A model generated the notes under the pieces. The model was not told the DNA's origin. It ran no database searches and was given only the letters and a program-made list of their open reading frames with translations. This document shows, in pieces, positions 15,557 through 49,740 of a stretch of DNA of 61,410 nucleotides. This DNA comes from Elusimicrobiota bacterium (GTDB lineage: Bacteria > Elusimicrobiota > Elusimicrobia > UBA1565): contig DMEZ01000013.1 of NCBI GenBank assembly GCA_003450735.1, positions 1-61,410 on the forward strand, given 5' to 3'. Each line of letters begins with the position of its first letter. Position 1 is the first letter of the stretch. A program made the translations under genes and the position numbers.

Positions 15557-16344
15557 TTCGTCTTCAAGTCCTTCAGGTCCCAGCCGTAGAACCAGCTCAG
15601 GGAGAACCGCAAGGTCTTGACCGTCCGATGGAGCTGAGGATAGGTCTCCCAGCAGTATTCCGAGCCGACGTCGAAATACTTGCCCTTGAAGACCGCGGCG
15701 AGGGAGGGCCCGTGCACGTCGTAGTACTGCCGGTTCTTGGAGCGCAGGCGCCAGTCATAGGACGCGTAGGTGTGGAACATCCAGCCCCAGCCGAGCGCCG
15801 CCCAGTCCACACCCTGCCGGACCCAGCCCTGCGAGCCGGAGCCTTCCTCGCCGTGGAGATCGTAGGTCATCTTGCCCCAGGTGGAGAGCGGAAGGGCGAG
15901 CGGGGCGCGGGAGCCCAGGCGGGGCTTCCCGGTCCACTTGGAGACGTCCCAGGAGCTGAACCAGCTGCCGAAGAGGGAATAGTTGTTGTCGTCAAGGGGG
16001 AGGTCGGGATAGCGCAGCCATGCGAACTCCGCTCCGGCGGTGAGGGGCCCTTTCGCGAGCGAAGCGATCAAGGACGGCCCGTAGGTGTTGTAGTAGGTCT
16101 TGTTCTTGTTGCGCACGCGCCAGTTGTACGCGGCGTAGGTGTCCATGTCCACGTCCCCTTTGAACCGGACCCAGCGCACTCCCTGCCTGGCCCAGCCCTG
16201 CACGCCGGTGCCTTCCGTGTCGTCGGAGCCGCGCTTAAGGCTGCCCCAGGTGGAGCCGGGGTAGCCCTCGGGGGAGTAGGTCTCGGAGCCCGCCGGAGCG
16301 GACGCGAAGACGAGGAGCGTCAAAACCGCGGTTCGAAGCCTCAT
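15553..16344 (-). CDS. Secreted W/Y-rich protein with an internal tandem duplication (two ~115-aa repeats)
   Basis: Signal peptide MRLRTAVLTLLVFASAPAGS. Repeat 1 GVQGWARQGVRW...YAAYNWRVRNKNKTYYNTYGPSL matches repeat 2 GSQGWVRQGVDW...YASYDWRLRSKNRQYYDVHGPSL. ATGA overlaps at both ends place it in the bcs operon. Confidence 0.5.
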   Translation of the reverse strand: MRLRTAVLTLLVFASAPAGSETYSPEGYPGSTWGSLKRGSDDTEGTGVQGWARQGVRWVRFKGDVDMDTYAAYNWRVRNKNKTYYNTYGPSLIASLAKGPLTAGAEFAWLRYPDLPLDDNNYSLFGSWFSSWDVSKWTGKPRLGSRAPLALPLSTWGKMTYDLHGEEGSGSQGWVRQGVDWAALGWGWMFHTYASYDWRLRSKNRQYYDVHGPSLAAVFKGKYFDVGSEYCWETYPQLHRTVKTLRFSLSWFYGWDLKDLKTK

Positions 16345-18134: not shown

Positions 18135-18140
18135 GGCCCT

Positions 18141-20306: not shown

Positions 20307-20322
20307 GGAGCGCGTGATTCTA

Positions 20323-21282
20323 TCAAAAGTAATTGTAATAGCCCATCCATAGATTCTCGAAGAACCCGCACTGCAGGTCGTTGAGGAGGCCCGCCCGGAC
20401 CTGTTCCGCGATCTCGTGCTCCGCATGGCATGCCCCCGCGCCGGCGTGGCCGCCTCCGCCGTACCTCTTCATGATGCTACCGATGTCCAGGGGGCAGGTC
20501 CTGTCGAGGACGGATTTTCCCGCCGCGAAGAACGCCCGGCCGCTCTTCCCGGTCGAGGAGACGTGCATGGACACGTTGCACTCGGGGAACAGGGCGTAAG
20601 TCATGAACTTGTTTCCCGGGACGATCCGCTCCTCCTGCCTCATGTCGGTGAGGACGAGGTTGGAGTGCACCGACGCGCATCTCAGGATCTGGCCCTTGTA
20701 CTCGTCGATGCACGCGAAATAGAGCTCCAGCCTCTCCTCCACGTCCGGGATGCTCAGGAGCTCCCATACGGTGCGGCGCTTCGCCTCGTCCATCAGCTCG
20801 ACGATGAGCTCGTCGTGGGACGCACGGAACCTCTTGAACTGCTCCAGGCCCGTCCTCGTGTCGATCAGGTAGCTCAGGAGGGTCCAGCCCGTCGGATACA
20901 GGATCTCCTCGCTCGCGATCCGGGCGCTGAAGCCCTTGTCGACCGCGTCGAGGATGTCGTCGTGGATGCCCGCGAACCGCTCCGCTCCGTAATGGTTGAA
21001 GATCACCCTCGCCGTGGAGGGCGCCCGGGTGTCGACCTTCAGATTGTGCTTGTCGACCGCCGGCTTGTGCGCGGAGGGATAGTGGTCGAAGGCCAGGTGG
21101 GCGTCGTCCTGGTACGGGAGCCCCGCCGTGATGTCGCCGGCCGTGACCTTGAACTTCCCGCTCTCGACGTCCTTCGGGTGGACGAAGGCGACGCTCTCGA
21201 GGAGGCCCAGCTCCTTGAGGAGCATGCCGCAGACCAGCCCGTCGAAATCGCTCTTGGTGACGAGCCGGTATCTTCCGCCCAA
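20323..21282 (-). CDS. DHH/DHHA1-family phosphoesterase-like protein (NrnA-like), with the DHH motif degenerate to DHY
   Basis: Motif I DFDG. FDHY sits in the place of DHH. DHHA1 signature GGGGHAGAGA. Inserted between bcsA and bcsB. Confidence 0.45.
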   Translation of the reverse strand: MGGRYRLVTKSDFDGLVCGMLLKELGLLESVAFVHPKDVESGKFKVTAGDITAGLPYQDDAHLAFDHYPSAHKPAVDKHNLKVDTRAPSTARVIFNHYGAERFAGIHDDILDAVDKGFSARIASEEILYPTGWTLLSYLIDTRTGLEQFKRFRASHDELIVELMDEAKRRTVWELLSIPDVEERLELYFACIDEYKGQILRCASVHSNLVLTDMRQEERIVPGNKFMTYALFPECNVSMHVSSTGKSGRAFFAAGKSVLDRTCPLDIGSIMKRYGGGGHAGAGACHAEHEIAEQVRAGLLNDLQCGFFENLWMGYYNYF

Positions 21283-21283
21283 G

Positions 21284-23557
21284 CTAGGCCTCCGCCCTCG
21301 CCCAGAGGCGGTCGACGTAGCCCGCGAGGCGGTTCGAGTGGAGCTTGACGTGGTCCATCGAGGGGACGAGGATGAACTTGAGCACCGCGACGTAGAACAC
21401 CCGCAAGCCCATGGCGCTCGACTTGAGGAGGAAGAGCAGGATCCACACGGGGTTGGCCGGCTTGGTCTTCTGCTCCCAGAAATCCGCCCACCGCTGGCTG
21501 TCGCCGAAGACGAACTCGACGGCCTCCATGCGCTGCTTCTCGTCGCTCAGGATGAACTCGCAGCCGCAGGCCCAGGTTGTCCCCCTGCGGACCTGCCGCT
21601 GGACACGCGCCTCGATCCTGAATCTCTTGCCGTGGCTGTTCCGGGTCTCGAGGATGAGGTGCTCGAGGGGCGCCAGCTCGTCGGCCAGCTCGAAGGAGAG
21701 CCCGACGCCCGACATGGAGATGTCGTCCATCTGCGCTTCCAGCGCCTTGCCCAGCCTGGGCAGGGTGAGATGCGCCGTGCCTTTCGCCCACATCCGGTGG
21801 TGCCGGCGCACCTGCTTGCGCTCGAAGAACGCCCCGAACGACGAGAGCGCCAGCAGGAGGTTCACCAAGCACCACACGAAGGTGATCGTCGTGATGTCCC
21901 GGTAGATCGGGTACGTGTACCACTTGATCGCCGCGGCCGGGACGGCGACGATGAGCACCCCGGTCAGCAGGAGGAAGGGCAGGGCGAACCCGCTCAGGAA
22001 GTCGCTCTCCAGGCTCTTCCCCTTCGGCGTCACCTTGAAGGACGGCTTCCTCGGGTTCAGGAAGACGGACAGGACCACGGGGATCAGGAACAAAGACTGG
22101 ATGCCCTCGAAGAACTCCGAGAAGAAGGGCCAGCGGAACCGCCCGTAGAGGAACCCCGTCAAAACCATGGACCCCAGCACGTGCGGGAGCGCGTAGGCCA
22201 AAACCTGGGGCACGGAGGCGAAGAAGACCCTCAAATCCAGGAGCAGGAACGCCGCCGGCGCGACGTAGAAGATGACCCTCGACGCCCCGAAGAACCAGTA
22301 GAAGCAGCTGTTGAAGTAGCAGAGCTTCTGGTAGAGCTTCAGGCCTTTCGCGAACAGCGGGTTGTTCAGGACGAAGATCTGGGTCATCCCCTGGGCCCAG
22401 CGGCTCTTCTGCACGATCAGGTCGTCGAACGTCTCCGGGGAAAGGCCGCAGACCATGGGCCGCGGGATGTAGACGCTCTTATAGCCCCGCTGGTGCAGGG
22501 CCACGGCGGTCTCGCAGTCCTCGGTGATGGTCTCGCCGCAGACGCCCCCGATCTCCTCGAGGCAGCTCCGCCTCAGCAGCGCCGCCGAGCCGCAGAAATA
22601 GCTCGAGTTCCACATGTCGAGGCCCGGGTGGATGCCGCGGTAGAACATGTCGTTCTCGCTGGGCGCGTCCTTGAAGATCGCCATGTTCTTCTCGATCGGG
22701 TTCGGGTTGATGAAGAAGTGCGGCGTCTGCACGAACGCGACCTTCTCGTCTTTCAGGAACCAGCCCGCGGTGTTCTTCAGGATGTCCCTCACGGGGACGT
22801 GGTCGCAGTCCAGGATGAGCACCAGGTCGGCGCTCGTGTGCCCCAGCGCGTGGCTGAGGTTCCCGGCCTTGGCCCTGAGATTCTTCTCGCGCGTGATGTA
22901 GCCGATGCCGTGCCTCTCGGCCAGCCCCTTCAGGGCGTAGTACCTCTCCCAGGCCTGGGGCCCGGTCTTCGGGTCGCACCGCTTCGCGACGGTGGCCCCG
23001 TCGTCGAGGATGTGGATCTTCAGCTTGTTTTTTGGGTAATCGATGTTCAGGGCGGCCAGGGCCGTGAGCTTCACGATGCCGATCGGCTCGCTGTAGGTCG
23101 GGATGAGCACGTCCACGGAAGGGTAGCTGGACGTGTCCGCGGGCAGCGGCATGATCTTGTTCTCGAGCGGCCAGATGCTCGTGAAGATGCCGAGCAGGTG
23201 GACGCTGATGGCGTACATCTCGGCGAGGTAGAGGGCCATCATGGCCAGGGTGTCCGCCGGCCCCGTATAGACCAGGGTCTCGGTCGTCCTCCAGACCACG
23301 TAGCGGAGGGTCAGGAAGGAGGCCAGGACGATGAAGAGGATCCTCAGGGGGGGCTTCTTGACCCTGTCGATGGGCTTGAGGAGGAAAAGGACGGCGAGGG
23401 AGCCCCAGCCGACGACGTACTGGCTGCTGAGCTCCAGGTGCAGCTGCGCGAGATGGTAGAAGAGATAGAGCGCGGCGGCGAGGAACGCGTACGAGAAGCC
23501 CGGGATGACGCCGGGATGCTTCAGCAGGAAGTCCTTCAACGAGCCGGCGGACGTCAA
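21284..23557 (-). CDS. bcsA: Cellulose synthase catalytic subunit BcsA (GT2) with C-terminal PilZ domain
   Basis: GT2 motifs D,D,D (ILDDG, LDCDH), TED, QKSRWAQG (QxxRW). PilZ motifs RRHHR and DISMSGVGL. TTG start at 23557 overlaps the cyclase stop (TTGA). The N-terminal 70 aa of the longer ORF look non-coding. Confidence 0.9.
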   Translation of the reverse strand: MTSAGSLKDFLLKHPGVIPGFSYAFLAAALYLFYHLAQLHLELSSQYVVGWGSLAVLFLLKPIDRVKKPPLRILFIVLASFLTLRYVVWRTTETLVYTGPADTLAMMALYLAEMYAISVHLLGIFTSIWPLENKIMPLPADTSSYPSVDVLIPTYSEPIGIVKLTALAALNIDYPKNKLKIHILDDGATVAKRCDPKTGPQAWERYYALKGLAERHGIGYITREKNLRAKAGNLSHALGHTSADLVLILDCDHVPVRDILKNTAGWFLKDEKVAFVQTPHFFINPNPIEKNMAIFKDAPSENDMFYRGIHPGLDMWNSSYFCGSAALLRRSCLEEIGGVCGETITEDCETAVALHQRGYKSVYIPRPMVCGLSPETFDDLIVQKSRWAQGMTQIFVLNNPLFAKGLKLYQKLCYFNSCFYWFFGASRVIFYVAPAAFLLLDLRVFFASVPQVLAYALPHVLGSMVLTGFLYGRFRWPFFSEFFEGIQSLFLIPVVLSVFLNPRKPSFKVTPKGKSLESDFLSGFALPFLLLTGVLIVAVPAAAIKWYTYPIYRDITTITFVWCLVNLLLALSSFGAFFERKQVRRHHRMWAKGTAHLTLPRLGKALEAQMDDISMSGVGLSFELADELAPLEHLILETRNSHGKRFRIEARVQRQVRRGTTWACGCEFILSDEKQRMEAVEFVFGDSQRWADFWEQKTKPANPVWILLFLLKSSAMGLRVFYVAVLKFILVPSMDHVKLHSNRLAGYVDRLWARAEA

Positions 23558-24369
23558 TTCGTATCGCCCGTGATCGTTACGCTGTGCTCGGTCGTCCGCC
23601 TTTCCTCGTCGGAGCCTGAGCGGCCCAGCTTCCAGTAGGCCGCGGCCGCGAGGAGGATCGCGCCGGCCAGGGCCAGGAGGACCTTGATGCACAGCGGGCA
23701 CTTCTCTTGGACATCCTGGACCGGCTTCCTGGCGGAGAGGTCGCGCTGGATCTCGGTCTTGTTCCAATAGCCCTTGTAGAGCTTCATGGGCTCTTTCTTG
23801 CCCTTCAGCTCGACTTCCTTGGCGAAGCCGCAGTAGATCTCGGCGCGGTCCGAGAGCGCGTTGTAGGCCTCCTCCGAGAGGAGGATCTCGCCGGGGTTCG
23901 CCTGCGCCTCGATCCTGGACGAGACGTTCACGACGTCGCCGAAGATGTCGTTCTTCTCCACGATGCCGAGGCCCACGTGGATGCCGATGCGCATGAGGAT
24001 CGGGATCGTGAGCTTCTTCTCCAGGTTGAACGCGTCGATGCCCTTCTGGATCTCCGCGGCGGCCCGCAGGGCGCTCTGGGCGTTCTCGTAGTAGGACATC
24101 GTGCCGTCGCCCATCGTCTTGACGAGGATCCCGTCGTGCTTCTTGATGACCGGGAAAACGATGTCGAAGTGCTGTTTTATCAGCGTCCGGTGGGCGATGT
24201 CCCCGTGCGTCTCGGCGATGGCCGTGGAGCCCTTGAGATCGGTGAACATGACCGTGATGGTCTTCTGGAACCGGTCCTTGAACAGCTTGTCGAGGCGGGC
24301 GCGCTCCTCGATGATCTTGTCTACGTTCAAATCGTCTTCAGGATCTTCTTTCCGCTGTTCATCTGCCAT
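23554..24369 (-). CDS. Class III adenylate/guanylate cyclase (CHD) with a C-terminal transmembrane anchor
   Basis: Metal-binding Asps in FTDLKGST and KTMGDG. GIHVGLGIV and NVSSRIE motifs. The Lys before TMGDG suggests ATP specificity. C-terminal TM helix VLLALAGAILLAAAAYW. Confidence 0.75.
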   Translation of the reverse strand: MADEQRKEDPEDDLNVDKIIEERARLDKLFKDRFQKTITVMFTDLKGSTAIAETHGDIAHRTLIKQHFDIVFPVIKKHDGILVKTMGDGTMSYYENAQSALRAAAEIQKGIDAFNLEKKLTIPILMRIGIHVGLGIVEKNDIFGDVVNVSSRIEAQANPGEILLSEEAYNALSDRAEIYCGFAKEVELKGKKEPMKLYKGYWNKTEIQRDLSARKPVQDVQEKCPLCIKVLLALAGAILLAAAAYWKLGRSGSDEERRTTEHSVTITGDTN

Positions 24370-24399
24370 GCGTCAGGCCTCGCGCGACATGTATAACAT

Positions 24400-24429
24400 T
24401 TACCAATTAGCATCGCGATATTACCAATT
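24400..24429. promoter_or_regulatory. Direct repeat TTACCAATT x2, spaced 21 bp, in the promoter region of the cyclase-bcsA operon
   Basis: Repeats at 24400-24408 and 24421-24429. They lie 31 and 52 bp upstream of the cyclase ATG (24369, minus strand), in a locally AT-rich 84-bp intergenic region. Confidence 0.35.
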
Positions 24430-24453
24430 TTCCGACTCGCTGACCCTAGGCCT

Positions 24454-26235
24454 CTATCTTCTCAGGGTGAGAGTGAGGGAAGCGCCTTCTCTGGCGAGCG
24501 AGGCCGGACTTGCGGCCGAGAAGGGCCCGGAGGAGGCCGTGATCTCGTAGTCGCCCAGGAACGCGCGCGCTCGATACTCCCCGCGCCAGTCCGCGGTCCC
24601 GCCGGTCTGCGTGTTCCAATCCTTCAGGAGGAGCTCCTCGAGCGCGGCGGCCGCCGGCTTCTTCGACCAGTCCCTCCGGTAGAGCGCCATGACCGGTTCG
24701 GAATGGACGCCCTCCCAGAAGCCCCAGAGGGTGATGCCCTCCACCGCGGGGTGGCTGAACATCGCGGTCATGAAATCGCGCAGGTAATCGGCCTGGAGCT
24801 CCTCGTCGGCCACCTCGACGTCGAGCTCAGTGGCCTGCAGGGGCTTGCCGAGCCGTCCGAACCGGTCGAGGACCCTCAGCAGCCGCTCGGGCGGCGTAAG
24901 GTCGTAGCGGAAATGACACTGCAGGCCGACGCCGTCGAGCGGGGCCCCATCCGAAAGGATCCGGCGGATGAGCGCTTCGTAGCGGTCCTGCTGCTCGAGG
25001 TTCAGGCCGAAGCCGTCCAGGACGTCGTAGTCGTTCACGAAGAGCCTGGCTTCGGGGTCGGCCTTCCGCGCGAGGCGGAACCATTCGAGAGCCTCCCCGC
25101 GGCCCAGGAGGCCGAGGACCTCCGGGTGGCCGATGGGCTCGTTGAGCACGTCCCACTCCGCGGCCTTCCCTCGGTAATAGGCCGCTTCCTCCGTGATGTG
25201 CCCGCGGATGGTTTTCCGCAGTCGGTCCGGGTCGTTCTTCAGGTTCTCCATGCCCTCGGGCATGTGCTCCCAGCCGGGCCAGACCAGGGTATGGCCCCGG
25301 AGCTTGATGCCCCCGGCCTTCAGCCAGGCGGCCGTCTTGTCGGCCCAGGCTCTCTGCTCGCCTTTCCAGAAGGGCCACTTGAGTCCGTTCTCTATGGTGG
25401 CGGAGTTGAAGAGCCGCAGGAAGGTCTCCTTGTAGCGGCGCCGGTCGTCGTCCCGGCCCCCGGAGAAGAGGGTCGCCGAGTTGATCGCGCTGCCGAAGAA
25501 GAACGCATGCCGCTTCAGTCTGACCTGGACGGCCGCGCCCGGCGCCGGCTTCCCGTCCGGGTCCACGACCTTGACCGTGATGCCGGCTTTCCGGATGCGC
25601 TCGATGCGCTCTTCGGCGGCTTTCCTCCACGGGGCCCCGGGCTCCCGGCCTTCATAGAACCCGGCGGCGGGGACCCGGACAGGGCTCCGGCCGAGGCCGA
25701 CGAGCTCGAAGCCGGCGAGCTCCACCGTCTGCGCGCCGAATCCGAGCCTGAAAGCGATCTGCGCTCCCCCGGCCGGATAATCCCCGGCCGACCTGAAAGG
25801 TACGTCGATGCGCCGCCAGCGCAGGCCGGCCTCCGCCGGGAGAACGATGGATTTCCGGTACTCGCCGCCGACCTGCTCGAAGACGAAGTCCACCCGGGCC
25901 TTCGCGGGCGAGAACAGCGGCCTCCGGACGTAGAACCTGGCCGCCAGAAGGTCCCCGGCGCGCACCGGCGCGGCCGTCGGCGCTCTCAACTGCACCTCGT
26001 AAGGCTGAGGCGGCCTGGCCAGGGTGCGCAGGCGCAGCGCCTGCCCGCGGATCGAGACAGCGCCGCGGCCGCCGGCAAGAAAGGAGGCAGGGTCGCTCAG
26101 ATCGGAGGGCCTCACCAGCGGGGTCCCCGGCGGGAGCGGCGGCGCGGCGGGAAGCCTCAAGACGTAGAAGCCGTATGCCGAGTATGCCGCGGCGGCGGCC
26201 AGGGCGGCGCAGGAGGCGGCCAGGAGGCGCTTCAC
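24454..26235 (-). CDS. Glycoside hydrolase family 10 (endo-beta-1,4-xylanase-like) with an N-terminal beta-sandwich (CBM4/9-like) region, secreted
   Basis: GH10 catalytic motifs WDVLNEP (acid/base) and QATELDV (nucleophile). In-frame GTG starts at 26265 or 26235 (MKRLLAASCAALAAAAA signal peptide). Confidence 0.7.
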   Translation of the reverse strand: MKRLLAASCAALAAAAAYSAYGFYVLRLPAAPPLPPGTPLVRPSDLSDPASFLAGGRGAVSIRGQALRLRTLARPPQPYEVQLRAPTAAPVRAGDLLAARFYVRRPLFSPAKARVDFVFEQVGGEYRKSIVLPAEAGLRWRRIDVPFRSAGDYPAGGAQIAFRLGFGAQTVELAGFELVGLGRSPVRVPAAGFYEGREPGAPWRKAAEERIERIRKAGITVKVVDPDGKPAPGAAVQVRLKRHAFFFGSAINSATLFSGGRDDDRRRYKETFLRLFNSATIENGLKWPFWKGEQRAWADKTAAWLKAGGIKLRGHTLVWPGWEHMPEGMENLKNDPDRLRKTIRGHITEEAAYYRGKAAEWDVLNEPIGHPEVLGLLGRGEALEWFRLARKADPEARLFVNDYDVLDGFGLNLEQQDRYEALIRRILSDGAPLDGVGLQCHFRYDLTPPERLLRVLDRFGRLGKPLQATELDVEVADEELQADYLRDFMTAMFSHPAVEGITLWGFWEGVHSEPVMALYRRDWSKKPAAAALEELLLKDWNTQTGGTADWRGEYRARAFLGDYEITASSGPFSAASPASLAREGASLTLTLRR

Positions 26236-26304
26236 GTTCGCTCCAGATGGATGATACGCATCCACCGGATGCGATGCAAGCCGGGAAGCGGCCCCGCGGG
26301 GAGC

Positions 26305-26706
26305 CTAGGCCGGCTTGAGCAGACGGGCTACGGTCTGTTCGAGCAGGGCCGGCTCGATGGGCTTGTCGATGAAGGCCTCGGGCTCCTTGCAGCCGTAGTA
26401 CTCCCCCAGGTCCTCGGCCGAGAACTTCAGCCCGCTGCGCCGGTTCACGGATGTCAGCATGATGACCGGGATCGAGGCCAGGTCCTTGTCGGTCCGCAGC
26501 GCCGCGAACACCCCGAACCCGTCCATCTTGGGCATCTGGACGTCCAGGATGACCAACCGAGGCCTGCTCTGGCGGATCAGCTGGAGCGCCTTCTCTCCGT
26601 CGGGAGCGTCGAGCAGTTCGCAGGGGAAGCCTTCCAGGACGCCCCGCACGAAAGAGATGCAGTCCGGCTCGTCGTCGGCGATCAGGATCTTGGGCTGTTC
26701 GTTCAA
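26305..26706 (-). CDS. Single-domain response regulator (CheY-like receiver)
   Basis: KILIADDEPD, ILDVQMPKMDG, LTSVNR...KPIEP. TTG start with a GAGGAGG SD 7 nt upstream. Paralog of 11797..12213. Confidence 0.8.
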   Translation of the reverse strand: MNEQPKILIADDEPDCISFVRGVLEGFPCELLDAPDGEKALQLIRQSRPRLVILDVQMPKMDGFGVFAALRTDKDLASIPVIMLTSVNRRSGLKFSAEDLGEYYGCKEPEAFIDKPIEPALLEQTVARLLKPA

Positions 26707-26737
26707 GGTCGTTCCTCCTCGGCGTCTCTTCGGCGGG

Positions 26738-27166
26738 TCAGGCCAGCACCTTCTTGACCGTCTCGATCAGGACCTGGGGGTCCACGGGCTTCTCGACGTA
26801 GGCGTCCGGCTTGGCGTCGACGCCGACGACCTTCTTCTTCGCCGCGGCATGCGAGTCGTCGCAGAGGTAGGACTTCATGTCCACGCCCGTGACCTTCGAG
26901 GCGCCGCTCACCACGATCACGGGGACCTGCCGGAAGCCCTCCTGCCGCTTGAATTGGTTGAAGAACGCCAAGCCGCTCTGCCCCGGCATCATGAGGTCGA
27001 GGAAGACGATATCGGGCCTGCGCCCGGAGGCCTTCTCCAGGGCGTCCTTGCCGTTCTTCGCCGAGAAGGTCTCGAAGCCGTGGTCCTCCAGGATCTGCGA
27101 GATGAAATCGATGTTGTCCTGCTCATCGTCCACGACCAGCGCGACCTTGCCGTTGAATTCTGCCAT
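26738..27166 (-). CDS. Single-domain response regulator (CheY-like receiver)
   Basis: VALVVDDEQD, FLDLMMPGQSG, VIVVSGASK. AGGAGG SD upstream of the ATG. Confidence 0.8.
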   Translation of the reverse strand: MAEFNGKVALVVDDEQDNIDFISQILEDHGFETFSAKNGKDALEKASGRRPDIVFLDLMMPGQSGLAFFNQFKRQEGFRQVPVIVVSGASKVTGVDMKSYLCDDSHAAAKKKVVGVDAKPDAYVEKPVDPQVLIETVKKVLA

Positions 27167-27205
27167 GGTCCTCGATCCTCCTGGAATCGGCGGGCTTCGA
27201 AAGCC

Positions 27206-28735
27206 CTACCCGCCCTGCCGGCCTGCGTCCATCGCGGCCTGTCTGCTCCTGGGGAGCCGGAGGCTGAAGGTGGTGCCCCGGCCGAGGGCGGTGTCGACCT
27301 CGATGCGTCCCCCGTGCTCTTGAACGATCTTGCGGGTCACGGAAAGGCCGAGCCCCGTGCCCTTGGAGCCCTTGGTGCTGAAGAAGGCCTTGAAGAGGGA
27401 CCCGCGCGCGGCCTCGTCCATGCCGCAGCCCTGGTCGGCCACGTCCACCGCCACCTCGCCGCAGTCGAGCTCGCGCACGCGCACGTCCACGCCGGCCCCT
27501 TCGCGCCCCTCGCAGGCGTCCAAGGCGTTGGTGACCAGGTTCAGGACGCACCGGCAGATCCCCTGGCCGTCGAGTTCGACCGGGTTCGGCCCGGGGGTCG
27601 GCTCGAAGCGCAGGGGCACGCCCCGCTCGTGCGCCTTGGGAGCCATCAGGTCCACGACGCCCTTCACGACCTCGTTGAGGTCGCACGCCTGGTATTCGGG
27701 CCGGCGCTCCTTCGCGTAGGTCAGCATGTCCTGGACGAGGTTCTTCAGGAGCTCGAGGTTCCTGTCGATCATCCCGATGCTGCGGCCCGGGATGTCCGAC
27801 CCGGCCTTCTTGACCGCGGACTTGAGCAGGTACATCCCGCCGCTCAGCCCGTTGAGCATGTTCTTGATGCAGTGCGCCACCCCGGCTACCGCCTCGCCGA
27901 TGGCGGCCAGGCGCGCGGCCTTGAGGGATTCGCGGATGAGCTGCGCGTTGTGGATGGCGACCGCGATCTGGCCGGCTACGGCCTCCGCGAGGGCGAGGTC
28001 GTGGCGGCTGAAGCCCTCGCCCCCGTTCTTGTTGACCAGCTCGAGGGCGCCGATGCACTGGGAATCGACGATCAGCGGCACGCAGAGGATCGAATGGGTG
28101 AGGAAGCCGCTCTCTTCGTCCGCCTTCTTGGAGAAGCGCGGGTCCTGGAGGGGGTTGTTGACGATGACCGCCAGCCGCTTGGACACGCAGTCGCCCACGA
28201 TGCCCTCGCCTTCCGCGAGGCGGAAGCTCGCCAGCTTGGAGGCGCCGCCCTCCGTCACCACGAACTGGAACACGAGCTCGCGCGCCCCCTTGTCCCAGAG
28301 CGCGATGGTCGCCCCTCCGACGTCCAGCATCTCGCCGGCGATCCGGATGACCGTGGGCAGGAGCTTATCGAGGTCCTGGGACGCGCTGTGGATCAGGCGC
28401 GAAGTGTCGACGAGGCCCCGGAGCTCGGCCAGCAGGAAGCGGTGGGCGTGGTCGTTGCGCCTGCGGCCGATCGCCTGTCCCGTCCTGGATGAGAGCTTAG
28501 CGACGATCAGCCCGCCGCAGCCGCAGGCGACCTCGGTGTCGGCCCGGAACGCCGCCAGGTCGTATTCCCGACCGCAGGTCGGGCAGGACATCCGCTTCCT
28601 TTCGCTGACGATCCGGCGGTAGGCGAGCCACGGGAGGATCCGGATCCTTTCGCCGCAGGAGCACGCGATCTCGGTCTCGTTGAGAGACCGGTCCGCCTCG
28701 TAACGATGACGGCACTTAGGGCATTCGGCCAGCAT
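27206..28735 (-). CDS. Sensor histidine kinase: duplicated N-terminal zinc-ribbon, GAF, HisKA, HATPase_c (cytoplasmic, no TM seen)
   Basis: Two CPxC(x16-18)CxCG repeats (CPKCRH...CSCG and CPTCGR...CGCG). GAF-like region. H-box GVAHCIKNML. HATPase LNLVTNALDA, DQGCGM, GTGLGLSV. Confidence 0.75.
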   Translation of the reverse strand: MLAECPKCRHRYEADRSLNETEIACSCGERIRILPWLAYRRIVSERKRMSCPTCGREYDLAAFRADTEVACGCGGLIVAKLSSRTGQAIGRRRNDHAHRFLLAELRGLVDTSRLIHSASQDLDKLLPTVIRIAGEMLDVGGATIALWDKGARELVFQFVVTEGGASKLASFRLAEGEGIVGDCVSKRLAVIVNNPLQDPRFSKKADEESGFLTHSILCVPLIVDSQCIGALELVNKNGGEGFSRHDLALAEAVAGQIAVAIHNAQLIRESLKAARLAAIGEAVAGVAHCIKNMLNGLSGGMYLLKSAVKKAGSDIPGRSIGMIDRNLELLKNLVQDMLTYAKERRPEYQACDLNEVVKGVVDLMAPKAHERGVPLRFEPTPGPNPVELDGQGICRCVLNLVTNALDACEGREGAGVDVRVRELDCGEVAVDVADQGCGMDEAARGSLFKAFFSTKGSKGTGLGLSVTRKIVQEHGGRIEVDTALGRGTTFSLRLPRSRQAAMDAGRQGG

Positions 28736-29105
28736 GCGTCCCCCTGCTGCGCAGGCGTGCGGCGGGATTAGGGCCTCGGCGCACGGTAACACGCCCCGAG
28801 GACTGAAGACAAATGAATTTTTTTCATCGTCGTATTAGCGCATCTAATATCCGGAGCCTCCGGCCCGGCCGAGACTGGACGTCCATGCCGCATTATACCA
28901 CCCAGGCCCCGGCGGCGGCCAGGACGGCGACGCCCAGCGCCGCGTCCGCGCCGCGACGCCGCCGAAGAGGACCTGCAGCGTCACCTCGAAGGACGTCCAG
29001 CCGAGCCAGAGCGCTCCCGCCACCGGCAGGGCGTTCCTGGCCAGCACCAGCCACGGCCCCAGGTTTCCATGAAGGACTCGGAACGGTTTCTTGGGAGATG
29101 CTCCA

Positions 29106-31112
29106 TCACGTCCCAAGCCGGACGAGCGCCCGCGCCCGCGCATCGGTCGCCGACAGGAAGCTCGAGTGGCTCCACGACAGGTCCCGGCCCGAGGCCGGCG
29201 CGCCGGTCTCCTTGTCGAACTGCTCGGCCAGCTCGCCGGAGGGGGGGGTCGCGCGCTTGAGCGTCCTCAGCAGGTCGTCTCCGCGCAGGACGAGGCCCCG
29301 CAGCAGGCTCTCCCGCTCGGCCAGGGCCTCATCGCGCAGCGCTCCTCCTCCCGCCCGCCTCAGCGCCCTCGAGAGGAACTCCCGGTTGAGCGGGGTCACG
29401 GGGATGGACTCCTTTTTCGACAGCAGTTCCGCGGCCCGGTAGTGGAGCTCCGCGTAGGCCATCGTGGCGAACACCCACGGGTTCCCGCCAAAGTAGGTGT
29501 CCCCGTTGTAGCGCCCCATCGCCACGCCCTCGTCTTCGGCGCGCTTCTTGTTGAACGGGTATAGGGACTCGAAGAGGTCTTCCAGCTTCACCGCGGTGGA
29601 CAGCACGCGCTCGTCGAGGGGGGACGTCCGCCCCTCCGTCAGGCCCCCATGCAGGGCCGCGAGCAGCACCGCGACGTCCAGCCCCTCGCCGGGCTTCTCC
29701 TTCACCGTCCCGTCCCAGTAGGTCCGGGGCCCCAGCGCGAAGGCATAGTAGCCCTTGTCCTCCAGCCAGAGCTTGTCCAGCTCCGCGTACAGCCGCCTCG
29801 AGGCCTCGACACGGCCGCCCGCCCTCAGGGCCGCGGCCTGCACCGCGCGGGTATAGTAGTCGTGCCCGCGGTACTCCTCCCACAGGTCGAAGCCCTCGCG
29901 CTCCGTGTCCGAGGCGATGAAGTCCAGGTCGGTCTTCGCCGCCTCGGGGTCCACGCGCAGAAGGGCCAGCGCCCGCAGGGCCGGCCCGTCGTACTGCGGC
30001 CTCGACCAGCGCAAAAAGTCTCGGGAGCCGTCGGCATTGAAGCGCGGCTCGCCCAGGTCGGAGGCTTGCAGGGAGCGGGAGAACGCGGCGAAATCCTTCA
30101 CCTGCTGGTCGTGCCCCAGCGCCGCCAGCTCGGACATGACCAAGGCCGAGTCCCGCACCCAGTGGAAGAAATAGTCCGGCTCCGGGGGCTTGCCCGCCGG
30201 GGCCGCGACCACGGAGCCCGGCTTCGGGGTGATGCTCGCCCGGATCTTCCCGCCTTCGATCTTCAGGCCGGCCTTGCGGGCGGGGTCGGCGTGGACCTCA
30301 TCGAACTCTTTCTCCACGACGGTCCCCGTCGAAGACACGTTGCGCAGGAGGCGCTCGAGCGAGAGCTTCCTCTGAGCGGCGATCCAGGTTTCGAGCCCGA
30401 AATGGGCGAAGATCCGGTCGAAGGCCTCCCGCTCCTTCTCAGGATGGAACTGCACCGCCAGGATGGAGCCCTTCTCCATCGCCTCGACGACGCCGTCGTC
30501 CGCCGCGGCGGCGACCGTGAAGCCCTCCGCCGGCCGCTTGACCGCCTGATGGTGGTACGAGTTCACCCGGATGCGGTCCTTTCCCAGAAGCGCCCGCAGC
30601 AGGCTCCCTTTCTTCAGGTCGACTTCGTGGTAGCAAGGCTTGGACTTCCCGTCCTCGCGGACGCGGTGGACGATCTTGCCGACCTGGGAGGGGAGGTCCT
30701 GGTAGAGGCTGCCCCCGGCGTAGACGTTGAGCAGCTGGTGGCCCTTGCAGATGCCGAGGATGGGGAGCTTCCGCTCCAGGCTCCTCTTGACCGCGGCGAA
30801 CTCGTAGAGGTCGAAGCCCTTGTCGACCGTCTCGAGCTTCGGGTGCGGCTCCTCGCCGTAGAGGTCGGGCGAGACGTCGTCGCCTCCCGGCACCAGCAGG
30901 CCGTCGAGGGAGTCGAGGCGCGCCTCGGTCTCGCTGGAGGCCAGCGCCTGGAAGAGCGGGACGATCTCGGCCCCGTGGGCCTTCAGCGCCTTGGAGTAGT
31001 AGGGGAGCTTGTCCTCCGCGGCCAGCGCTTGCTCCTCAGTGTAAAGCAGTCCGATCCTGGGAGGGGCGGCCTCCGCGAGCGCGGCCGCGGCGAGGAGGGC
31101 GAGCCAGGCCAT
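29106..31112 (-). CDS. Secreted fusion protein: class I glutamine amidotransferase-like (peptidase C26) domain + GH15 glucoamylase-like (alpha/alpha)6 domain
   Basis: Signal peptide MAWLALLAAAALAEA. GATase1 triad motifs ILGICKGHQLLN and VQFHPE. GH15 motifs HWVRDSALV and GFDLWEE. Confidence 0.65.
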   Translation of the reverse strand: MAWLALLAAAALAEAAPPRIGLLYTEEQALAAEDKLPYYSKALKAHGAEIVPLFQALASSETEARLDSLDGLLVPGGDDVSPDLYGEEPHPKLETVDKGFDLYEFAAVKRSLERKLPILGICKGHQLLNVYAGGSLYQDLPSQVGKIVHRVREDGKSKPCYHEVDLKKGSLLRALLGKDRIRVNSYHHQAVKRPAEGFTVAAAADDGVVEAMEKGSILAVQFHPEKEREAFDRIFAHFGLETWIAAQRKLSLERLLRNVSSTGTVVEKEFDEVHADPARKAGLKIEGGKIRASITPKPGSVVAAPAGKPPEPDYFFHWVRDSALVMSELAALGHDQQVKDFAAFSRSLQASDLGEPRFNADGSRDFLRWSRPQYDGPALRALALLRVDPEAAKTDLDFIASDTEREGFDLWEEYRGHDYYTRAVQAAALRAGGRVEASRRLYAELDKLWLEDKGYYAFALGPRTYWDGTVKEKPGEGLDVAVLLAALHGGLTEGRTSPLDERVLSTAVKLEDLFESLYPFNKKRAEDEGVAMGRYNGDTYFGGNPWVFATMAYAELHYRAAELLSKKESIPVTPLNREFLSRALRRAGGGALRDEALAERESLLRGLVLRGDDLLRTLKRATPPSGELAEQFDKETGAPASGRDLSWSHSSFLSATDARARALVRLGT

Positions 31113-31122
31113 CTCAGAGCTT

Positions 31123-31631
31123 CGGGCTCTGGAAGCCGAGCCTCTTCAACCCCGCCTTCACCTCGGGACAGCTCATGAAGAGCCTCCAGAGGAGGCCGGT
31201 GCGGTAGTTCTCGATCATGACCACGATGGGCCCCTGGTCGATGGCCAGGTGGGACTTGGCGGTCCAGCCCTCCCCTGGAAGAGGAAGGAGGTCTCCACGA
31301 GGTCCCCGCCGTCGTCCTTGCGGCTGAAGGGGATCACCAGCCGGCCGGCCGCCGCCTCGCGGCTCACCCCGCCGCGCTCCGCGGCGACGACGAGGGCCAT
31401 GACGCCGAACCCGGTGCCGCCGATGGTGACGACCTCGCCGCCGTAGCCGTAGGCCCTGTGGCTCCTTTCGCGGGCCAGGCCGCTGTCGGGGTGTGCGAAG
31501 TCCCAGAAGTAACGGACGGTCTGCTTCTGCACGAGCTCGAGGAGCTCGTCGTCGCTGAGCTTCACCGGACGAAGCTCGGCGAAGGCCCGGGCGGGGAGCA
31601 GCAGAACGGCGGCCAGGAGGAGGATCCTCAC
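31123..31631 (-). pseudogene. Remnant of a glycoamylase-like (PF10091/DUF3131-type) gene: frameshifted and internally deleted
   Basis: N-terminal segment (GTG 31631, signal peptide, TVRYFWDFAHPDSGLARER, GGTGFGVMALVVAAERG) runs in one frame. The conserved C-terminus DQGPIVVMIENYRTGLLWRLFMSCPEV...KLGFQS reads only in a different frame, 31123..~31270. About 300 aa of the expected middle are missing. Confidence 0.35.
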
Positions 31632-33202
31632 GCGGGGGAGAGGTTGGCGAGCTTCACCGCCGGATTCTTGCCCATGAAGTACTCGCAGTCCCAGAGGGTC
31701 TTGAAGAGGGCGACGGCGCGGCCGTCGACATCCTGGGCGAGGCGCGCTCCGGCGGGCAGGAGGTCTTCCCCGAAAGGCGTCAAAACCCAGCGCACCACCG
31801 TCCAAGGGGAGGCCTCGAAGCGGGACTCCGCCCCGTACTCGTTCCTCAGGCGGTACTGCAGGACCTCGAACTGGAGGGGGCCCACCGCGCCGAGCAGGGG
31901 CACGCGGGAGGCCGCTCCGGGCAGGGTGAAGGTCTGCACGACCCCCTCCTGGAGGAGGTGGTCGAGGCCCGTTCGGAAGCGCTTGAACTCGGCCGTGCGG
32001 GTGCTGTGCAGGAAGGCGAAATGCTCGGGCGGGAATTTCGGCATGGGCTTGAAGGCGATGGCCGCGTCCTCGGTCAGGGTGTCGCCGATGCGGAACTGCG
32101 AGTGGCCCACGAGGCCCACCACGTCGCCGGCGAACGCCTCGTTCAGGAGTTCGCGGTCGCGGCCGAAGAGCTTGTGGGAGCTCGAGAGGCGCATCGTCTC
32201 GCCCGTGCGCGCGTGGAACACCTTCATGTCCCTTTCGAAGCGGCCGGAGCAGACACGCAGGAAGGCGAGCTGGTCGCGGTGGCGGGGGTCCATGTTCGAC
32301 TGGATCTTGAAGATGAAGCCGGAGAAGCGGGGGTCGTCGGGCTCCACTCGGCCGCTTGTCGTCGGCTGGGGGCGCGGGGGGGAGGAGAGCTTTAGGAAGC
32401 CGTCCAAAAGCAGCTGGACGCCGAAGTTGTGGACCGCGCTGCCGAAGAAGACCGGGGTCATGTCGCCGGCCTTCACCGCCGCCGGGTCGAAGGGCGTCCC
32501 CGCCCCCTCGACGACGGCCAGCTCGTCCTGGACCTTGCGCGCGGCCTCCGGGGCGAGGTGCTCCGCGAGGGCCTCGTCGAAGCCCTCGAGCACGGTGAGG
32601 GGAGCGCGGAACGCCCCGCCCGGCGCGCGCTCGAAGAAGTGGAGGCGCCTGGGGCCGCGCTCGAAGACCCCGTTGAAATCCTCGCCCATGCCCAGCGGCC
32701 AGTCCATGGGGAAGGGGTGCAGATGCAGGCGGCGGTCGATCTCATCGAGCAGTTCGAGCGGCTCGAGCGAGGGGCGGTCGAGCTTGTTGATGAAGGTGAA
32801 GATGGGGAGCTGGCGGAAGCGGCAGATCTCGAAGAGCTTGAGGGTCTGGCTCTCGATGCCCTTGGCTCCGTCGAGCACCATGATGACCGCATCGACGGCG
32901 GTCAGCACGCGGTAGGTGTCCTCCGAGAAGTCCCGGTGCCCTGGGGTATCCAACAAGTTGAGATGCCGGCCCCCATACTCGAACTGCAGGACCGTCGAGT
33001 TGACCGAGATGCCGCGCTTGCGCTCCAGTTCCATCCAGTCGGAGGTCGTGTTCTGCTCCCTCCTGCGCGCGGTGACCGAGCCGGCCAGCTGGACGGCGCC
33101 GCCGTAGAGCAAAAGCTTCTCGGTGAGGGTGGTCTTGCCCGCGTCGGGGTGGGAGATGATGGCGAGCGTGCGGCGCTTGGAGATCTCCTCGCGGTGGTCC
33201 AT
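31628..33202 (-). CDS. prfC: Peptide chain release factor 3
   Basis: GTPase motifs AIISHPDAGKTT, DTPGH, NKLD. Full-length (524 aa) RF3-like. Confidence 0.9.
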   Translation of the reverse strand: MDHREEISKRRTLAIISHPDAGKTTLTEKLLLYGGAVQLAGSVTARRREQNTTSDWMELERKRGISVNSTVLQFEYGGRHLNLLDTPGHRDFSEDTYRVLTAVDAVIMVLDGAKGIESQTLKLFEICRFRQLPIFTFINKLDRPSLEPLELLDEIDRRLHLHPFPMDWPLGMGEDFNGVFERGPRRLHFFERAPGGAFRAPLTVLEGFDEALAEHLAPEAARKVQDELAVVEGAGTPFDPAAVKAGDMTPVFFGSAVHNFGVQLLLDGFLKLSSPPRPQPTTSGRVEPDDPRFSGFIFKIQSNMDPRHRDQLAFLRVCSGRFERDMKVFHARTGETMRLSSSHKLFGRDRELLNEAFAGDVVGLVGHSQFRIGDTLTEDAAIAFKPMPKFPPEHFAFLHSTRTAEFKRFRTGLDHLLQEGVVQTFTLPGAASRVPLLGAVGPLQFEVLQYRLRNEYGAESRFEASPWTVVRWVLTPFGEDLLPAGARLAQDVDGRAVALFKTLWDCEYFMGKNPAVKLANLSPA

Positions 33203-33219
33203 GGGGATAATATATTACC

Positions 33220-35367
33220 ATGTCCGTCGCAGCCGAGTCCCCGCGCATGATCCGCCGGAAAGAGTGGCAGCTGTTCGCGGTCTCCTTCGTCAGCCTGTTC
33301 TTGGAGCTGATGCTCATCCGCTGGTCCCCCGCGGTCGTCCGCCTCATCGCCTATTACGCCAACCTGCTTTTGATCAGCTCCTTCCTGGGGCTGGGGATCG
33401 GCGCGATGCAGGGGCTTCGCCGGAAGAGCCTCTTCGGGCTCTTCCCTCCGCTCCTGCTCCTCCACGTCGGGGTCCTGCTGCTCTGCCGCCAGGCGATCCT
33501 GCCGGGGAGCGGCCTCGAGCTCCGCTTCGGGGGCGAGGAGCACGCCCGCCTCCTGAACTACGCCGTCCTGGTCGGCGTCTTCCTCGCGAACGCCGCCGTC
33601 TTCGTGCCGCTGGGACAGAGGATCGGCTCGCTCTTCGAAAGCCTCCCCGCCCTCAAGGCCTACGCATGGGACCTCTCCGGAAGCCTCTGCGGCGCGGTCT
33701 GCTTCGGCGTGTTCTCCTGGTCTCATTTCTCCCCGCTGGCCGGCCTCGCCCTCGTTTCGGGCGTGGTCCTCGCCCTCTCCGAGAGGAAGGAGCTCCGGCT
33801 CCGCCTGCCCTGCTTTTTGGCCGTCCTGGCGTGCGTCGGCCTGTCCTCCGAGCAGGGCGCCGTCTGGTCCCCGTACTATTTCGTCACGGTCCATGAGGGC
33901 AACCCGGGCGCCAAGCGGCTGGGCGGGGACAACGTCCTCGCGGAGCTCTTCTTCGCCGACTCGCGCCCGGTCTCGCGGCCCCGGGAGGGCCTCCGCGCGA
34001 TGAAAGACCCTCCGATCTACACCGCCCGGGTCAACCAGTTCTTCTATCAGCCCAACCTGACCTTGAACCCCGCCCGCTACACCGACCCGGCCGTCTCCGC
34101 CTTCATCGAGTGGCTCAGCCACGGCTACCGGCTGCCCTTCGCCCTCTCCCGCGCCCATGAGCGCGTGCTGGTTTTGGGGGCCGGAGGCGGCACCGACGTC
34201 GAAGCCGCCCTCGCCTCCGGGGCGGAGCAAGTCGACGCGGTGGAGATCGACCCCGTCCTCGTCGGCCTCTCCCGGAAGTTCAACCCGTCCGGCGTGTACG
34301 ACTCGCCCCGGGTGCGGGTGCACGTCGACGACGCCCGGGCGTTCCTGCGAAAGGCGGCCCCGGGCTACGACATGGTGCTCTTCGGCCTCCTCGACTCCCA
34401 GGCCCTCTTCAGCCAGATGAGCAGCATCCGGCTCGACGGCTACGTCTACACCGTGGAGAGCATGCGCTCGGCCTACGCGCTGCTGGCCCCCGAAGGCCTG
34501 CTGAGCGTCTCCTTCATGGCGGGCAAGGACTGGGTGGCGGCCAAGCTGCTGCGCATGCTGCAGGAGGCCACCGGGAAGACTCCGCTCATGTACGCGGACC
34601 TCGGCCAAGTCGTCCTCTGCGTTTCCCGCGGTCCGGCGCCCGAGGCGCCCCCGAGCATCGGCCGCTTCCGCCGGGTCCGGATGGAGTCGCTCCCGTCCCT
34701 CGAAGCCCCCAGCGACGACTGGCCCTACCTGTATCTCTCCGGGAGGAGGATCCCGCCGGACTACCTGGCGGTGATCCTGACCCTGCTGGCCTTGTCCATC
34801 GCGGCCGTGGTCCTCCAGCGCGGCCGGGGCTTCGGGGCCGAGGACGGGAAGTTCCTGTTCCTGGGCATGGGGTTCCTGCTGCTGGAGACCGCGAGCATCA
34901 GCGACTGCTCGCTCTACCTCGGGACCACCTGGCTGGTGACCACGGCCGTGGTCTCGGGAGTCCTGCTCATGTGCCTGGCCGCGAACCTCGCGGCGCAGAA
35001 GCTCAGGCCGCCCCCCTGGAAGATGGCCGTTCCCCTGTTCGCGACCCTCCTGCTCCTTTACGCGATGCCGAAAGACCAGGTGCTCTCGGCGCCCCTGTGG
35101 GGGAGGCTCCTGTGGACCGTGCTCGTCGTCCCTTTGCCCGTGTTCTTCGCGGGTCTCCTGTTCTCCTCGTCCTTCCGGGACGCCGGCTCCCGGTCGGCGC
35201 TCTTCGGCGCCAACCTCATCGGCGCCGTGATCGGGGGCTTCTGCGAGTACCTGGGGATGGCGATCGGGCATCGCGCCCTCCTGCTGATCGTGATGGGGGC
35301 CTACGCCGCCAGCCTGCTCGCCGGCTCAGGTCCGGCGGGACGGCAGGACTTCGAGCACGGCCGCTGA
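33220..35367 (+). CDS. Membrane-embedded spermidine synthase-like (polyamine aminopropyltransferase fold) protein with N- and C-terminal multi-TM domains
   Basis: Central Rossmann-type motif VLVLGAGGGTD...VDAVEIDP...VHVDDARAFL...YDMVLFGLLD. Flanked by ~7 N-terminal and ~6 C-terminal TM helices. The start may be 33247. Confidence 0.65.
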   Translation: MSVAAESPRMIRRKEWQLFAVSFVSLFLELMLIRWSPAVVRLIAYYANLLLISSFLGLGIGAMQGLRRKSLFGLFPPLLLLHVGVLLLCRQAILPGSGLELRFGGEEHARLLNYAVLVGVFLANAAVFVPLGQRIGSLFESLPALKAYAWDLSGSLCGAVCFGVFSWSHFSPLAGLALVSGVVLALSERKELRLRLPCFLAVLACVGLSSEQGAVWSPYYFVTVHEGNPGAKRLGGDNVLAELFFADSRPVSRPREGLRAMKDPPIYTARVNQFFYQPNLTLNPARYTDPAVSAFIEWLSHGYRLPFALSRAHERVLVLGAGGGTDVEAALASGAEQVDAVEIDPVLVGLSRKFNPSGVYDSPRVRVHVDDARAFLRKAAPGYDMVLFGLLDSQALFSQMSSIRLDGYVYTVESMRSAYALLAPEGLLSVSFMAGKDWVAAKLLRMLQEATGKTPLMYADLGQVVLCVSRGPAPEAPPSIGRFRRVRMESLPSLEAPSDDWPYLYLSGRRIPPDYLAVILTLLALSIAAVVLQRGRGFGAEDGKFLFLGMGFLLLETASISDCSLYLGTTWLVTTAVVSGVLLMCLAANLAAQKLRPPPWKMAVPLFATLLLLYAMPKDQVLSAPLWGRLLWTVLVVPLPVFFAGLLFSSSFRDAGSRSALFGANLIGAVIGGFCEYLGMAIGHRALLLIVMGAYAASLLAGSGPAGRQDFEHGR

Positions 35368-45132: not shown

Positions 45133-45142
45133 GCGGGATCCC

Positions 45143-46393: not shown

Positions 46394-46413
46394 CGGACCG
46401 CGCTGGAGCCGTC

Positions 46414-47307: not shown

Positions 47308-47518
47308 TACATTCACGACGGGATACCGCTTGCCGTTGTTCGAGCTTCCGCCCCGCCGATAGGCGGGGACGAAGCCGCGCGCCCGAGGCGCGTAAAAAGC
47401 GCCTTTTCGACGGATCGGATCGCTCTATCCCATCTCTCGATCGTTGAACATGCAAACATTCTTCAAGGAGCGAGTCGCTCTCCCATCGATCAACCCTGTC
47501 TACTCCGACTTATAACCA

Positions 47519-47550
47519 CCTGTTCCGGCTCCATCCTGTTCCGGCTCCAT
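47519..47550. repeat. 16-bp perfect tandem duplication (CCTGTTCCGGCTCCAT x2)
   Basis: Read directly from the sequence. Confidence 0.9.
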
Positions 47551-47600
47551 CTTCTCCCGTGGGGGGGACTACTTGGAAATAACGCTTAAATAATAAGCCA

Positions 47601-47628
47601 AATCAACATCGTCCGGACGATGTTGATT
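47601..47628. repeat. Perfect 28-bp palindrome (AATCAACATCGTCC|GGACGATGTTGATT)
   Basis: Read directly from the sequence. Lies in the low-GC intergenic island between 47307 and 47919. Confidence 0.9.
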
Positions 47629-47918
47629 GTGCTGAAAAAATAAGCGGAATCTCAGAGGGGTGGGGGGGGCAGCCGTTCTCCCGGAGTCTCAACAACCCAT
47701 GAGGATCCCCTCATGTACCGATAGCATCGCAAGCGTTGGCACTCTTTCCACTCAAACGACCGGCACCCCGCCGGAACCGATGCGGACATCCCCGCTTGAA
47801 AGCCCAATCGCCTAGGCCCCCGAGCCCGACCGGCCCACTGCGCAGGCCCATTAGGCCCAGCGTGTTTTCAGGCCCCTAGCCCCTGTCGGCGCCCGCCTGA
47901 CGCCGCTACACTCAAGAC

Positions 47919-49736: not shown

Positions 49737-49740
49737 AGGG

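Follow-up and report, generated by a model that had tools for sequence, protein, structure and literature searches.

Fungal GH15 glucoamylases, such as those of Aspergillus niger/awamori (1AGM, 1DOG, 3EQA) and Hypocrea jecorina (2VN4), are built on an (alpha/alpha)6 catalytic domain that is not preceded by a beta-sandwich, and the roles of its catalytic and subsite residues are well established. In the C26 family, PuuD of E. coli (6VTV) and SpuA of P. aeruginosa (7D4R) are cytoplasmic enzymes of polyamine catabolism. Most of the prokaryotic glucoamylases characterized have an N-terminal beta-sandwich (PMC8141877), a GH15_N domain of ~280 aa that is followed by a linker (PMC8141877, PMC3917699). 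The gene described here joins a C26 domain to a GH15 domain in one open reading frame (ORF). It lies at 29106-31112 on the minus strand of contig DMEZ01000013.1 of an Elusimicrobiota bacterium (assembly GCA_003450735.1), of which the whole stretch analysed, 61,410 nt in length, is called the window below. Both families are well known; joining them is new, and public data contain no other case.

The fusion gene is genuine and is confined to one uncultured Elusimicrobia population. The reading favored here, to which we give a probability of roughly 60%, is a lineage-specific fusion of two independently acting hydrolases that is exported. Both domains are most likely active, as judged from the conservation of their residues and from their structure models.

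Architecture and active sites of the fusion

It had been proposed from the letters of the DNA (the original prediction) that a C26/GATase1 domain carrying GICKGHQ and FHPE is fused to a GH15 domain carrying DLWEE in a single ORF, and this was borne out, as both domains were recognized by Pfam and all three motifs are present. The features of the gene are as follows.

29106..31112, minus strand: complete fusion ORF of 668 aa plus the stop codon (29106-29108), from the ORF listing
31062..31112, minus strand: signal-peptide-like hydrophobic leader MAWLALLAAAALAEAAP, residues 1-17, no Lys/Arg n-region; aligned with the signal peptides of exported C26 relatives
30399..31061, minus strand: C26 / class-I glutamine-amidotransferase-like domain, residues 18-238; from Pfam PF07722, PDB matches and the model
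30747..30749, minus strand: codon of Cys122, predicted nucleophile (GICKGHQ); invariant column, aligned with ICRG of PuuD, Lin1909 and SpuA
30438..30446, minus strand: codons of His223-Pro224-Glu225, predicted remainder of the triad (FHPE); invariant columns, aligned with WHPE of PuuD, Lin1909 and SpuA
30396..30401, minus strand: fusion seam Phe238/Gly239, where the C-terminal helix of C26 passes at its end straight into the first GH15 helix; from comparison with relatives of both halves
29109..30398, minus strand: GH15 catalytic domain of the fungal type, residues 239-668; from Pfam PF00723, the 1agm match and the model
29877..29879, minus strand: codon of Glu412 (DLWEE, residues 409-413), predicted general acid; aligned with the first Glu of glucoamylase DLWEE
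29223..29225, minus strand: codon of Glu630 (AEQFD), predicted general base; aligned with the Glu of glucoamylase SEQFD

In the C-terminal half, Glyco_hydro_15 (PF00723) was matched at residues 350-655 with 156.8 bits (cut-off 22, E 1e-45), and the best PDB sequence matches are fungal glucoamylases, with 1agm at E 9e-42. The residues were compared in an alignment of 33 sequences, 1agm included (the query and 32 homologues), and it was found that Glu412 and Glu630 are invariant in 33/33. The residues Y314, W318, R320, D321, W369, L410, W411, E412, E413, R534, D538, Y540, W546, E630, Q631 and W647 are kept in the query; their counterparts in the literature numbering of the Aspergillus glucoamylase are, in the same order, Y48, W52, R54, D55, W120, L177, W178, E179 (the acid), E180, R305, D309, Y311, W317, E400 (the base), Q401 and W417. 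All residues of the -1 subsite (Y48, W52, R54, D55, W120, W178, E180, R305, D309, Y311, Q401 and W417) are identical in the query. The GH15 head would thus be an inverting exo-alpha-glucosidase of the glucoamylase kind, the general acid being Glu412 and the general base Glu630; since the -1 subsite is fully conserved, it is expected to free glucose from the non-reducing ends of alpha-glucosides. The linkage specificity of GH15 enzymes (alpha-1,4, alpha-1,6, trehalose etc.) is set by the +1 subsite.

When the GH15 domain was modelled alone (AlphaFold2, 47-sequence alignment), an (alpha/alpha)6 barrel was obtained with a predicted local distance difference test score (pLDDT) of 94.4 and a predicted template-modelling score (pTM) of 0.94. 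In Foldseek comparisons, the template-modelling score (TM) was 0.75-0.79 to the glucoamylases of Aspergillus, Hypocrea and Hormoconis, 0.55-0.56 to the Kribbella-type enzyme 5z3a, which consists of the catalytic domain only, and 0.51-0.56 to bacterial enzymes that carry the N-terminal beta-sandwich (1lf6, 1ug9, 9ju0). The prokaryotic beta-sandwich enzymes (1LF6, 1UG9; SdGA, CauloGA) thus belong to the same family and have the same catalytic glutamates as the query, whereas the structural match is much weaker; the score for TIGR01577 was 59.9 against a cut-off of 820.7. Resemblance to the fungal enzymes also has its bounds, in that identity in the structural alignments is only 26-28% and the query has neither the starch-binding CBM20 nor the O-glycosylated linker. 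Unlike the fungal enzymes, it comes from a bacterial host, several of its helical hairpins are shorter, and it has a clade-specific N-terminal insertion as well as the N-terminal C26 domain.

The nearest GH15 homologues, of 500-560 aa, are 46-56% identical over residues 240-668 and come from Elusimicrobiota, Acidobacteriota and Pseudomonadota. They carry GH15 only, after a signal or lipobox leader, and hundreds of shorter bacterial GH15-only proteins follow further down the match lists. The original prediction had taken the C26 domain to stand in place of the beta-sandwich usual in bacteria, which proved to be off target: the GH15 domain is of the fungal type, and this type is common in bacteria with a leader only. 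No beta-sandwich and linker precede the barrel in the query, where Pfam places C26 instead. As the GH15 clade never had a beta-sandwich, it is the leader peptide that C26 replaces.

Relatives of this kind, P0002-P0020 (annotated as 'glycoside hydrolase family 15 protein' or 'glucoamylase'), share the clade insertion with the query. Unlike the query, they stand alone, have their own leader and no C26 domain, and do not have the query's four shortenings of the GH15 domain. The insertion follows the first helix and precedes the PDYFFHW motif (fusion residues ~262-297; ~30222-30329), measures ~30-45 residues and is without counterpart in the fungal glucoamylases. In the model of the domain, it forms a small three-stranded beta-sheet (domain residues 31-59, pLDDT 82-91).

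The N-terminal half is matched by Peptidase_C26 (PF07722) at residues 36-225 (182.9 bits, cut-off 20.5, E 9e-54), with an overlapping GATase match at residues 105-232; GICKGHQ occupies residues 120-126 and FHPE residues 222-225. The Cys-His-Glu triad suggested by these motifs was found intact on alignment, the catalytic Cys122 included. Cys122, His223 and Glu225 are invariant across the aligned exported C26 relatives, and their placement relative to solved enzymes follows from PDB alignments (3fij, 6vtv, 7d4r). The C26 model shows the GATase1 alpha/beta fold with a pLDDT of 84-98 and a TM, target-normalised, of 0.80-0.87 to 3fij, 6vtv and 7d53 (Lin1909, PuuD and SpuA). PuuD, SpuA and Lin1909 (3FIJ) have the same fold and triad motifs as the query at ~30-34% identity. 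The score for the PuuD equivalog NF008471 of NCBIfam (gamma-glutamyl-GABA hydrolase) was 92.8 bits against a cut-off of 266; as this is far under the threshold, the C26 half is regarded as a member of the family and not as an orthologue of PuuD. It would cleave amides of the gamma-glutamyl type through a thioester acyl-enzyme at Cys122, helped by His223 and Glu225. A role of the domain as an ammonia-donating amidotransferase subunit was considered as well and was rejected in view of the lack of a synthase domain, the exported clade and the match to the hydrolase-type PF07722.

The nearest C26 relatives are stand-alone proteins of 260-340 aa, namely P0121 (70% identity) and P0122 (59%, from a metagenome-assembled genome of Elusimicrobiales). 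They have in common with the C26 half the motifs HRIR..G.SKPCYHE and VNSYHHQ and the position of the leader. All of the nearest relatives begin with a clear signal peptide, which sets the clade against the cytoplasmic PuuD and SpuA. In the query, the leader MAWLALLAAAALAEAAP reaches a best 10-residue hydrophobicity of 2.60 and has an ALA/EA site, and its alignment with the signal peptides of the relatives suggests that the fusion is exported. The word 'secreted' in the original prediction is borne out only in part: the leader is hydrophobic and signal-like and sits in the place where relatives have signal peptides, but its n-region has no Lys or Arg.

The members of the exported clade that are closest to the N-terminal half (P0121, P0122, P0021, P0022, P0244 and P0326) are not fused to GH15. 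Other fusions do occur in the same clade: with a VanX-like M15 dipeptidase (P0021), with a PRAI-like domain (P0022, P0244), as tandem copies, and with an SLH anchor ahead of tandem C26 (P0326). From these architectures, the clade looks like an exported module that joins readily with other domains. More widely, this exported PuuD-like clade (P0121-P0140, P0021, P0022, P0244, P0326; loci L006-L009) is present in Elusimicrobiota, Ozemobacteraceae, Hydrogenedentes, Riflebacteria and others, and some of the neighbouring genes are envelope-related (HtrA-like protease, Wzy_C, NlpC/P60). That its substrate is a gamma-glutamyl compound of the cell envelope is only a guess. A literature search on secreted bacterial C26 enzymes gave nothing relevant.

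Seam, uniqueness and origin

At the seam, the query reads FHPEKEREAFDRIFAHF, directly followed by GLETWIAAQ. The C26 relative P0121 ends with FHPEKERKAEPVFDRVFDYFVRQARR, that is, it continues for ~6 residues past the seam point and then stops (...FDYFVRQARR), and the GH15 relatives start with a leader followed by (P)GLE.WI..Q. Hence, the join drops ~6 C-terminal residues of C26 and the entire GH15 leader, and nothing is added. Since no C-terminal tail, intergenic spacer or leader remnant is left, loss of a stop codon or a frameshift was ruled out as the origin of the seam. In the full-length model, one continuous helix spans residues 228-280 across the seam, with confidence below 50 from about residue 260. 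The low-confidence stretch of that model, residues 260-370, is an artefact that is gone when the GH15 domain is modelled alone. The alignment contains no full-length homologue, and for this reason the interdomain geometry of the model is not trustworthy.

Second instances of the architecture were sought in two protein collections. An exhaustive HMMER search of 1.84 billion cluster representatives at 50% identity returned 20,097 hits; among the best 150, which were inspected, only the query covers residues 1-668, and the remainder cover either ~4-240 or ~240-666. A second fusion would be expected at the top of this ranking, because the scores of both domains would sum. A word-indexed search of 5.8e9 proteins found no other C26-GH15 fusion either, and all proteins with two stretches matching the C26 region were tandem C26. 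As to gene linkage, 0/80 GH15 loci from GTDB species representatives had a C26 gene within 10 kb, and around the closest GH15 gene (P0003) and the closest C26 genes (P0021, P0121, P0122) the gene of the other domain was absent as well. With a singleton fusion and no linkage of C26 and GH15 genes, there is no 'Rosetta-stone' signal for functional coupling. The architecture is thus neither common nor annotated: the protein is already public at NCBI, where it comes from a metagenome-assembled genome and bears the name 'hypothetical protein DCM05_02375 [Elusimicrobia bacterium]', and it was the sole protein of its kind in the database searches. A full-text search of the literature turned up no paper in which both families are named.

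Read along the minus strand, the locus comprises prfC, a GH144 fragment and the fusion and then, beyond a 313-nt spacer, the genes of a GAF histidine kinase, of two response regulators, of a GH10-like protein and of a nucleotide cyclase, followed by bcsA (PilZ), bcsB and bcsG. The fragment directly upstream of the fusion bears on its origin.

31114..31631, minus strand: GH144 (endo-beta-1,2-glucanase-like) pseudogene; from PDB sequence search (4gl3, 5gzh)

What is left aligns collinearly with 4gl3 in only three stretches, at its residues 12-83, 112-135 and 368-419, and the reading frame shifts between stretches. About 260 of ~420 codons are gone through internal deletions; the signal peptide and the natural C-terminus are still intact. 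The GTG of the GH144 gene overlaps the stop codon of prfC, and its own stop codon lies 1 nt ahead of the ATG of the fusion. Pfam gave no match for the fragments upstream of the fusion. As the immediate neighbourhood has demonstrably suffered deletions, a deletion is the most economical origin of the fusion, and we infer that the two genes were brought together by a deletion or rearrangement. Such an event would have cut the ~6 residues from C26 and the signal or lipoprotein leader from GH15, so that export of the GH15 half would now depend on the leader of C26. The fusion would then be a tolerated, lineage-specific accident, perhaps since C26 supplies GH15 with a leader.

Weighing the explanations

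A chimera of assembly or binning, or a sequencing error by which two adjacent genes were run together, would fit with the unique architecture and with the origin of the sequence from a metagenome-assembled genome. The identical ORF was found, however, preceded by the same fragments, in JGI 3300009296 as well as in the separate per-run Logan assemblies SRR6483009 and SRR5855239; over 4-14 kb, these three differ from the window by 0-2 mismatches (99.99-100% DNA identity), and they contain the same broken form of GH144. In addition, each half of the gene has a G+C fraction at third codon positions (GC3) of 0.93, and the codon fractions of both halves correlate with those of the neighbouring genes at r = 0.93-0.95, so that usage is uniform across the seam, at which no remnant of a tail, spacer or leader was seen. 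Because of the identical ORF in the other assemblies and the host codon usage in both halves, misassembly is unlikely, and we consider a chimera of any of these kinds to be highly improbable. A further explanation is that the gene is decaying, a chance product of local deletions that is heading for the state of the pseudogene with two internal deletions and a frame shift directly upstream of it. Several observations lend themselves to this and weigh against the favored reading of two working, exported hydrolases. In the leader, the hydrophobic core is not preceded by any Lys or Arg, of which 19/19 relatives have at least one at this place, and with the positive n-region missing, export of the fusion may be inefficient or lost. 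The GH15 domain has been shortened at four places, after residues 335, 351, 389 and 435, by ~45 residues in total; three of these shortenings are absent from 32/32 compared homologues and the fourth from 31/32, and one of them takes ~17 residues from the helix-4/5 hairpin just ahead of DLWEE. The shortenings could impair stability despite the confident model. Moreover, G+C of ~69% in the window gives rise to spurious, very long ORFs antisense to real genes, such as a 509-aa ORF opposite the fusion (29649-31178, plus strand) and one of 677 aa opposite the GAF kinase; as frames are kept open by chance at this composition, ORF length is weak evidence of coding or selection here. All of the assemblies represent one near-clonal population, in which selection on the fusion itself is not measurable and in which dN/dS between assemblies is uninformative at 99.99-100% identity. 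The unfused ancestral locus was sought through prfC synteny, and the nearest orthologues, 76-77% identical, have no GH144, C26 or GH15 genes downstream, which leaves the deletion a matter of reasoning from the pseudogene. Finally, the substrates are assigned from family membership, and the independence of the two activities from the absence of evidence for coupling. The chance that the protein is functionally compromised is put down as small, though not negligible, and the decay of the gene is likewise held to be unlikely. At columns conserved in at least 90% of sequences, the query deviates at 1/72 in GH15 and 0/42 in C26, the medians of the relatives being 2 and 1; as it deviates at fewer conserved columns than the median relative, no relaxed constraint is seen in either half. 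No catalytic or subsite residue has been lost, none of the length changes breaks the reading frame, and the trimmed hairpins are predicted with high confidence to fold.

According to the remaining explanation, the two heads form a coupled bifunctional enzyme, in which a glycan or glycoconjugate would first be freed by C26 of its gamma-glutamyl or amide decorations and then be degraded by GH15, or in which the order is reversed. The intact and conserved active sites agree with this, as does the fact that both parent clades act outside the cytoplasm, to judge from the leaders in relatives. There is no flexible linker, and the continuous helix predicted over the seam could fix the geometry of the two domains. 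The evidence to the contrary is as follows: no second fusion among the best 150 hits from the 1.84e9 representatives, no C26 gene within 10 kb at any of the 80 GH15 loci, no GH15 gene beside the stand-alone C26 genes, and no paper that names both families. Moreover, members of the C26 clade occur in fusions with unrelated partners (VanX-like M15, PRAI-like, SLH, tandem), and so the clade appears to be a promiscuous module that is not specific for GH15. We know of no gamma-glutamylated alpha-glucan and of no description of amino-acid-decorated alpha-glucans. Coupling of the two activities is therefore considered improbable. The same applies, with slightly less credence still, to the narrower proposal of a selected, coupled exo-enzyme, in which a rigidly held C26 strips gamma-glutamyl or amide-linked decorations from an extracellular alpha-glucoside polymer or glycopeptide and GH15 then trims it; if true, it would reveal a substrate class of amino-acid-decorated alpha-glucans. 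The original prediction of a bifunctional enzyme acting on gamma-glutamylated or amidated glycans thus found no support, given two domains that were not found fused or neighbouring elsewhere and a fusion that occurs in one population beside a deletion-riddled pseudogene. The lineage-specific fusion of two independently acting hydrolases is preferred; its export, the substrate classes, the deletion mechanism and the independence of the domains are the parts that we infer.

Neighbouring genes and meaning of the fusion

Downstream of the fusion, the genes of the GAF histidine kinase and of the two response regulators, which are single-domain proteins (26305-28792), lie just upstream of a cellulose-synthase cluster (16341-26265, minus strand), in which bcsA, with GT2 and PilZ domains, is located at 21284-23767, bcsB at 18141-20426 and bcsG at 16341-18134. 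Ahead of the bcs genes are a nucleotide cyclase (23554-24369) and a GH10-like protein of 603 aa (24454-26265). Clusters of bcs genes usually have the GH8 endoglucanase BcsZ at a position like that of the GH10-like protein. On the other side, divergent from prfC, a 715-aa protein is encoded at 33220-35367 on the plus strand. Its N-terminal part is hydrophobic and resembles a series of membrane segments, residues 308-397 form a spermine/spermidine-synthase-like domain, and the gene is present in the other assemblies. A scan of 28500-33500 for promoters and terminators gave nothing, and no RNA family of Rfam was found anywhere in the window. Further along, the stretch 44001-50000 shows a strong positive AT skew of 0.10-0.18, and G+C falls to 0.59 at 46001-48000, compared with ~0.69 elsewhere.

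As a singleton in one population, with no gene linkage and in a locus damaged by deletions, the fusion is a weak clue to new biology, and it would be a curiosity for specialists rather than a surprise. If both halves are active, it is a natural chimera of two enzymes, in which a GH15 barrel of the fungal type tolerates a large N-terminal passenger as well as trimmed hairpins, and this tolerance may be of interest to enzyme engineers. The analysis also exposed two uncharacterised bacterial clades that are possibly worth biochemical study: an exported C26 clade that fuses to modules related to the cell envelope, and a GH15 clade of the fungal type, often with leaders of the lipoprotein type.

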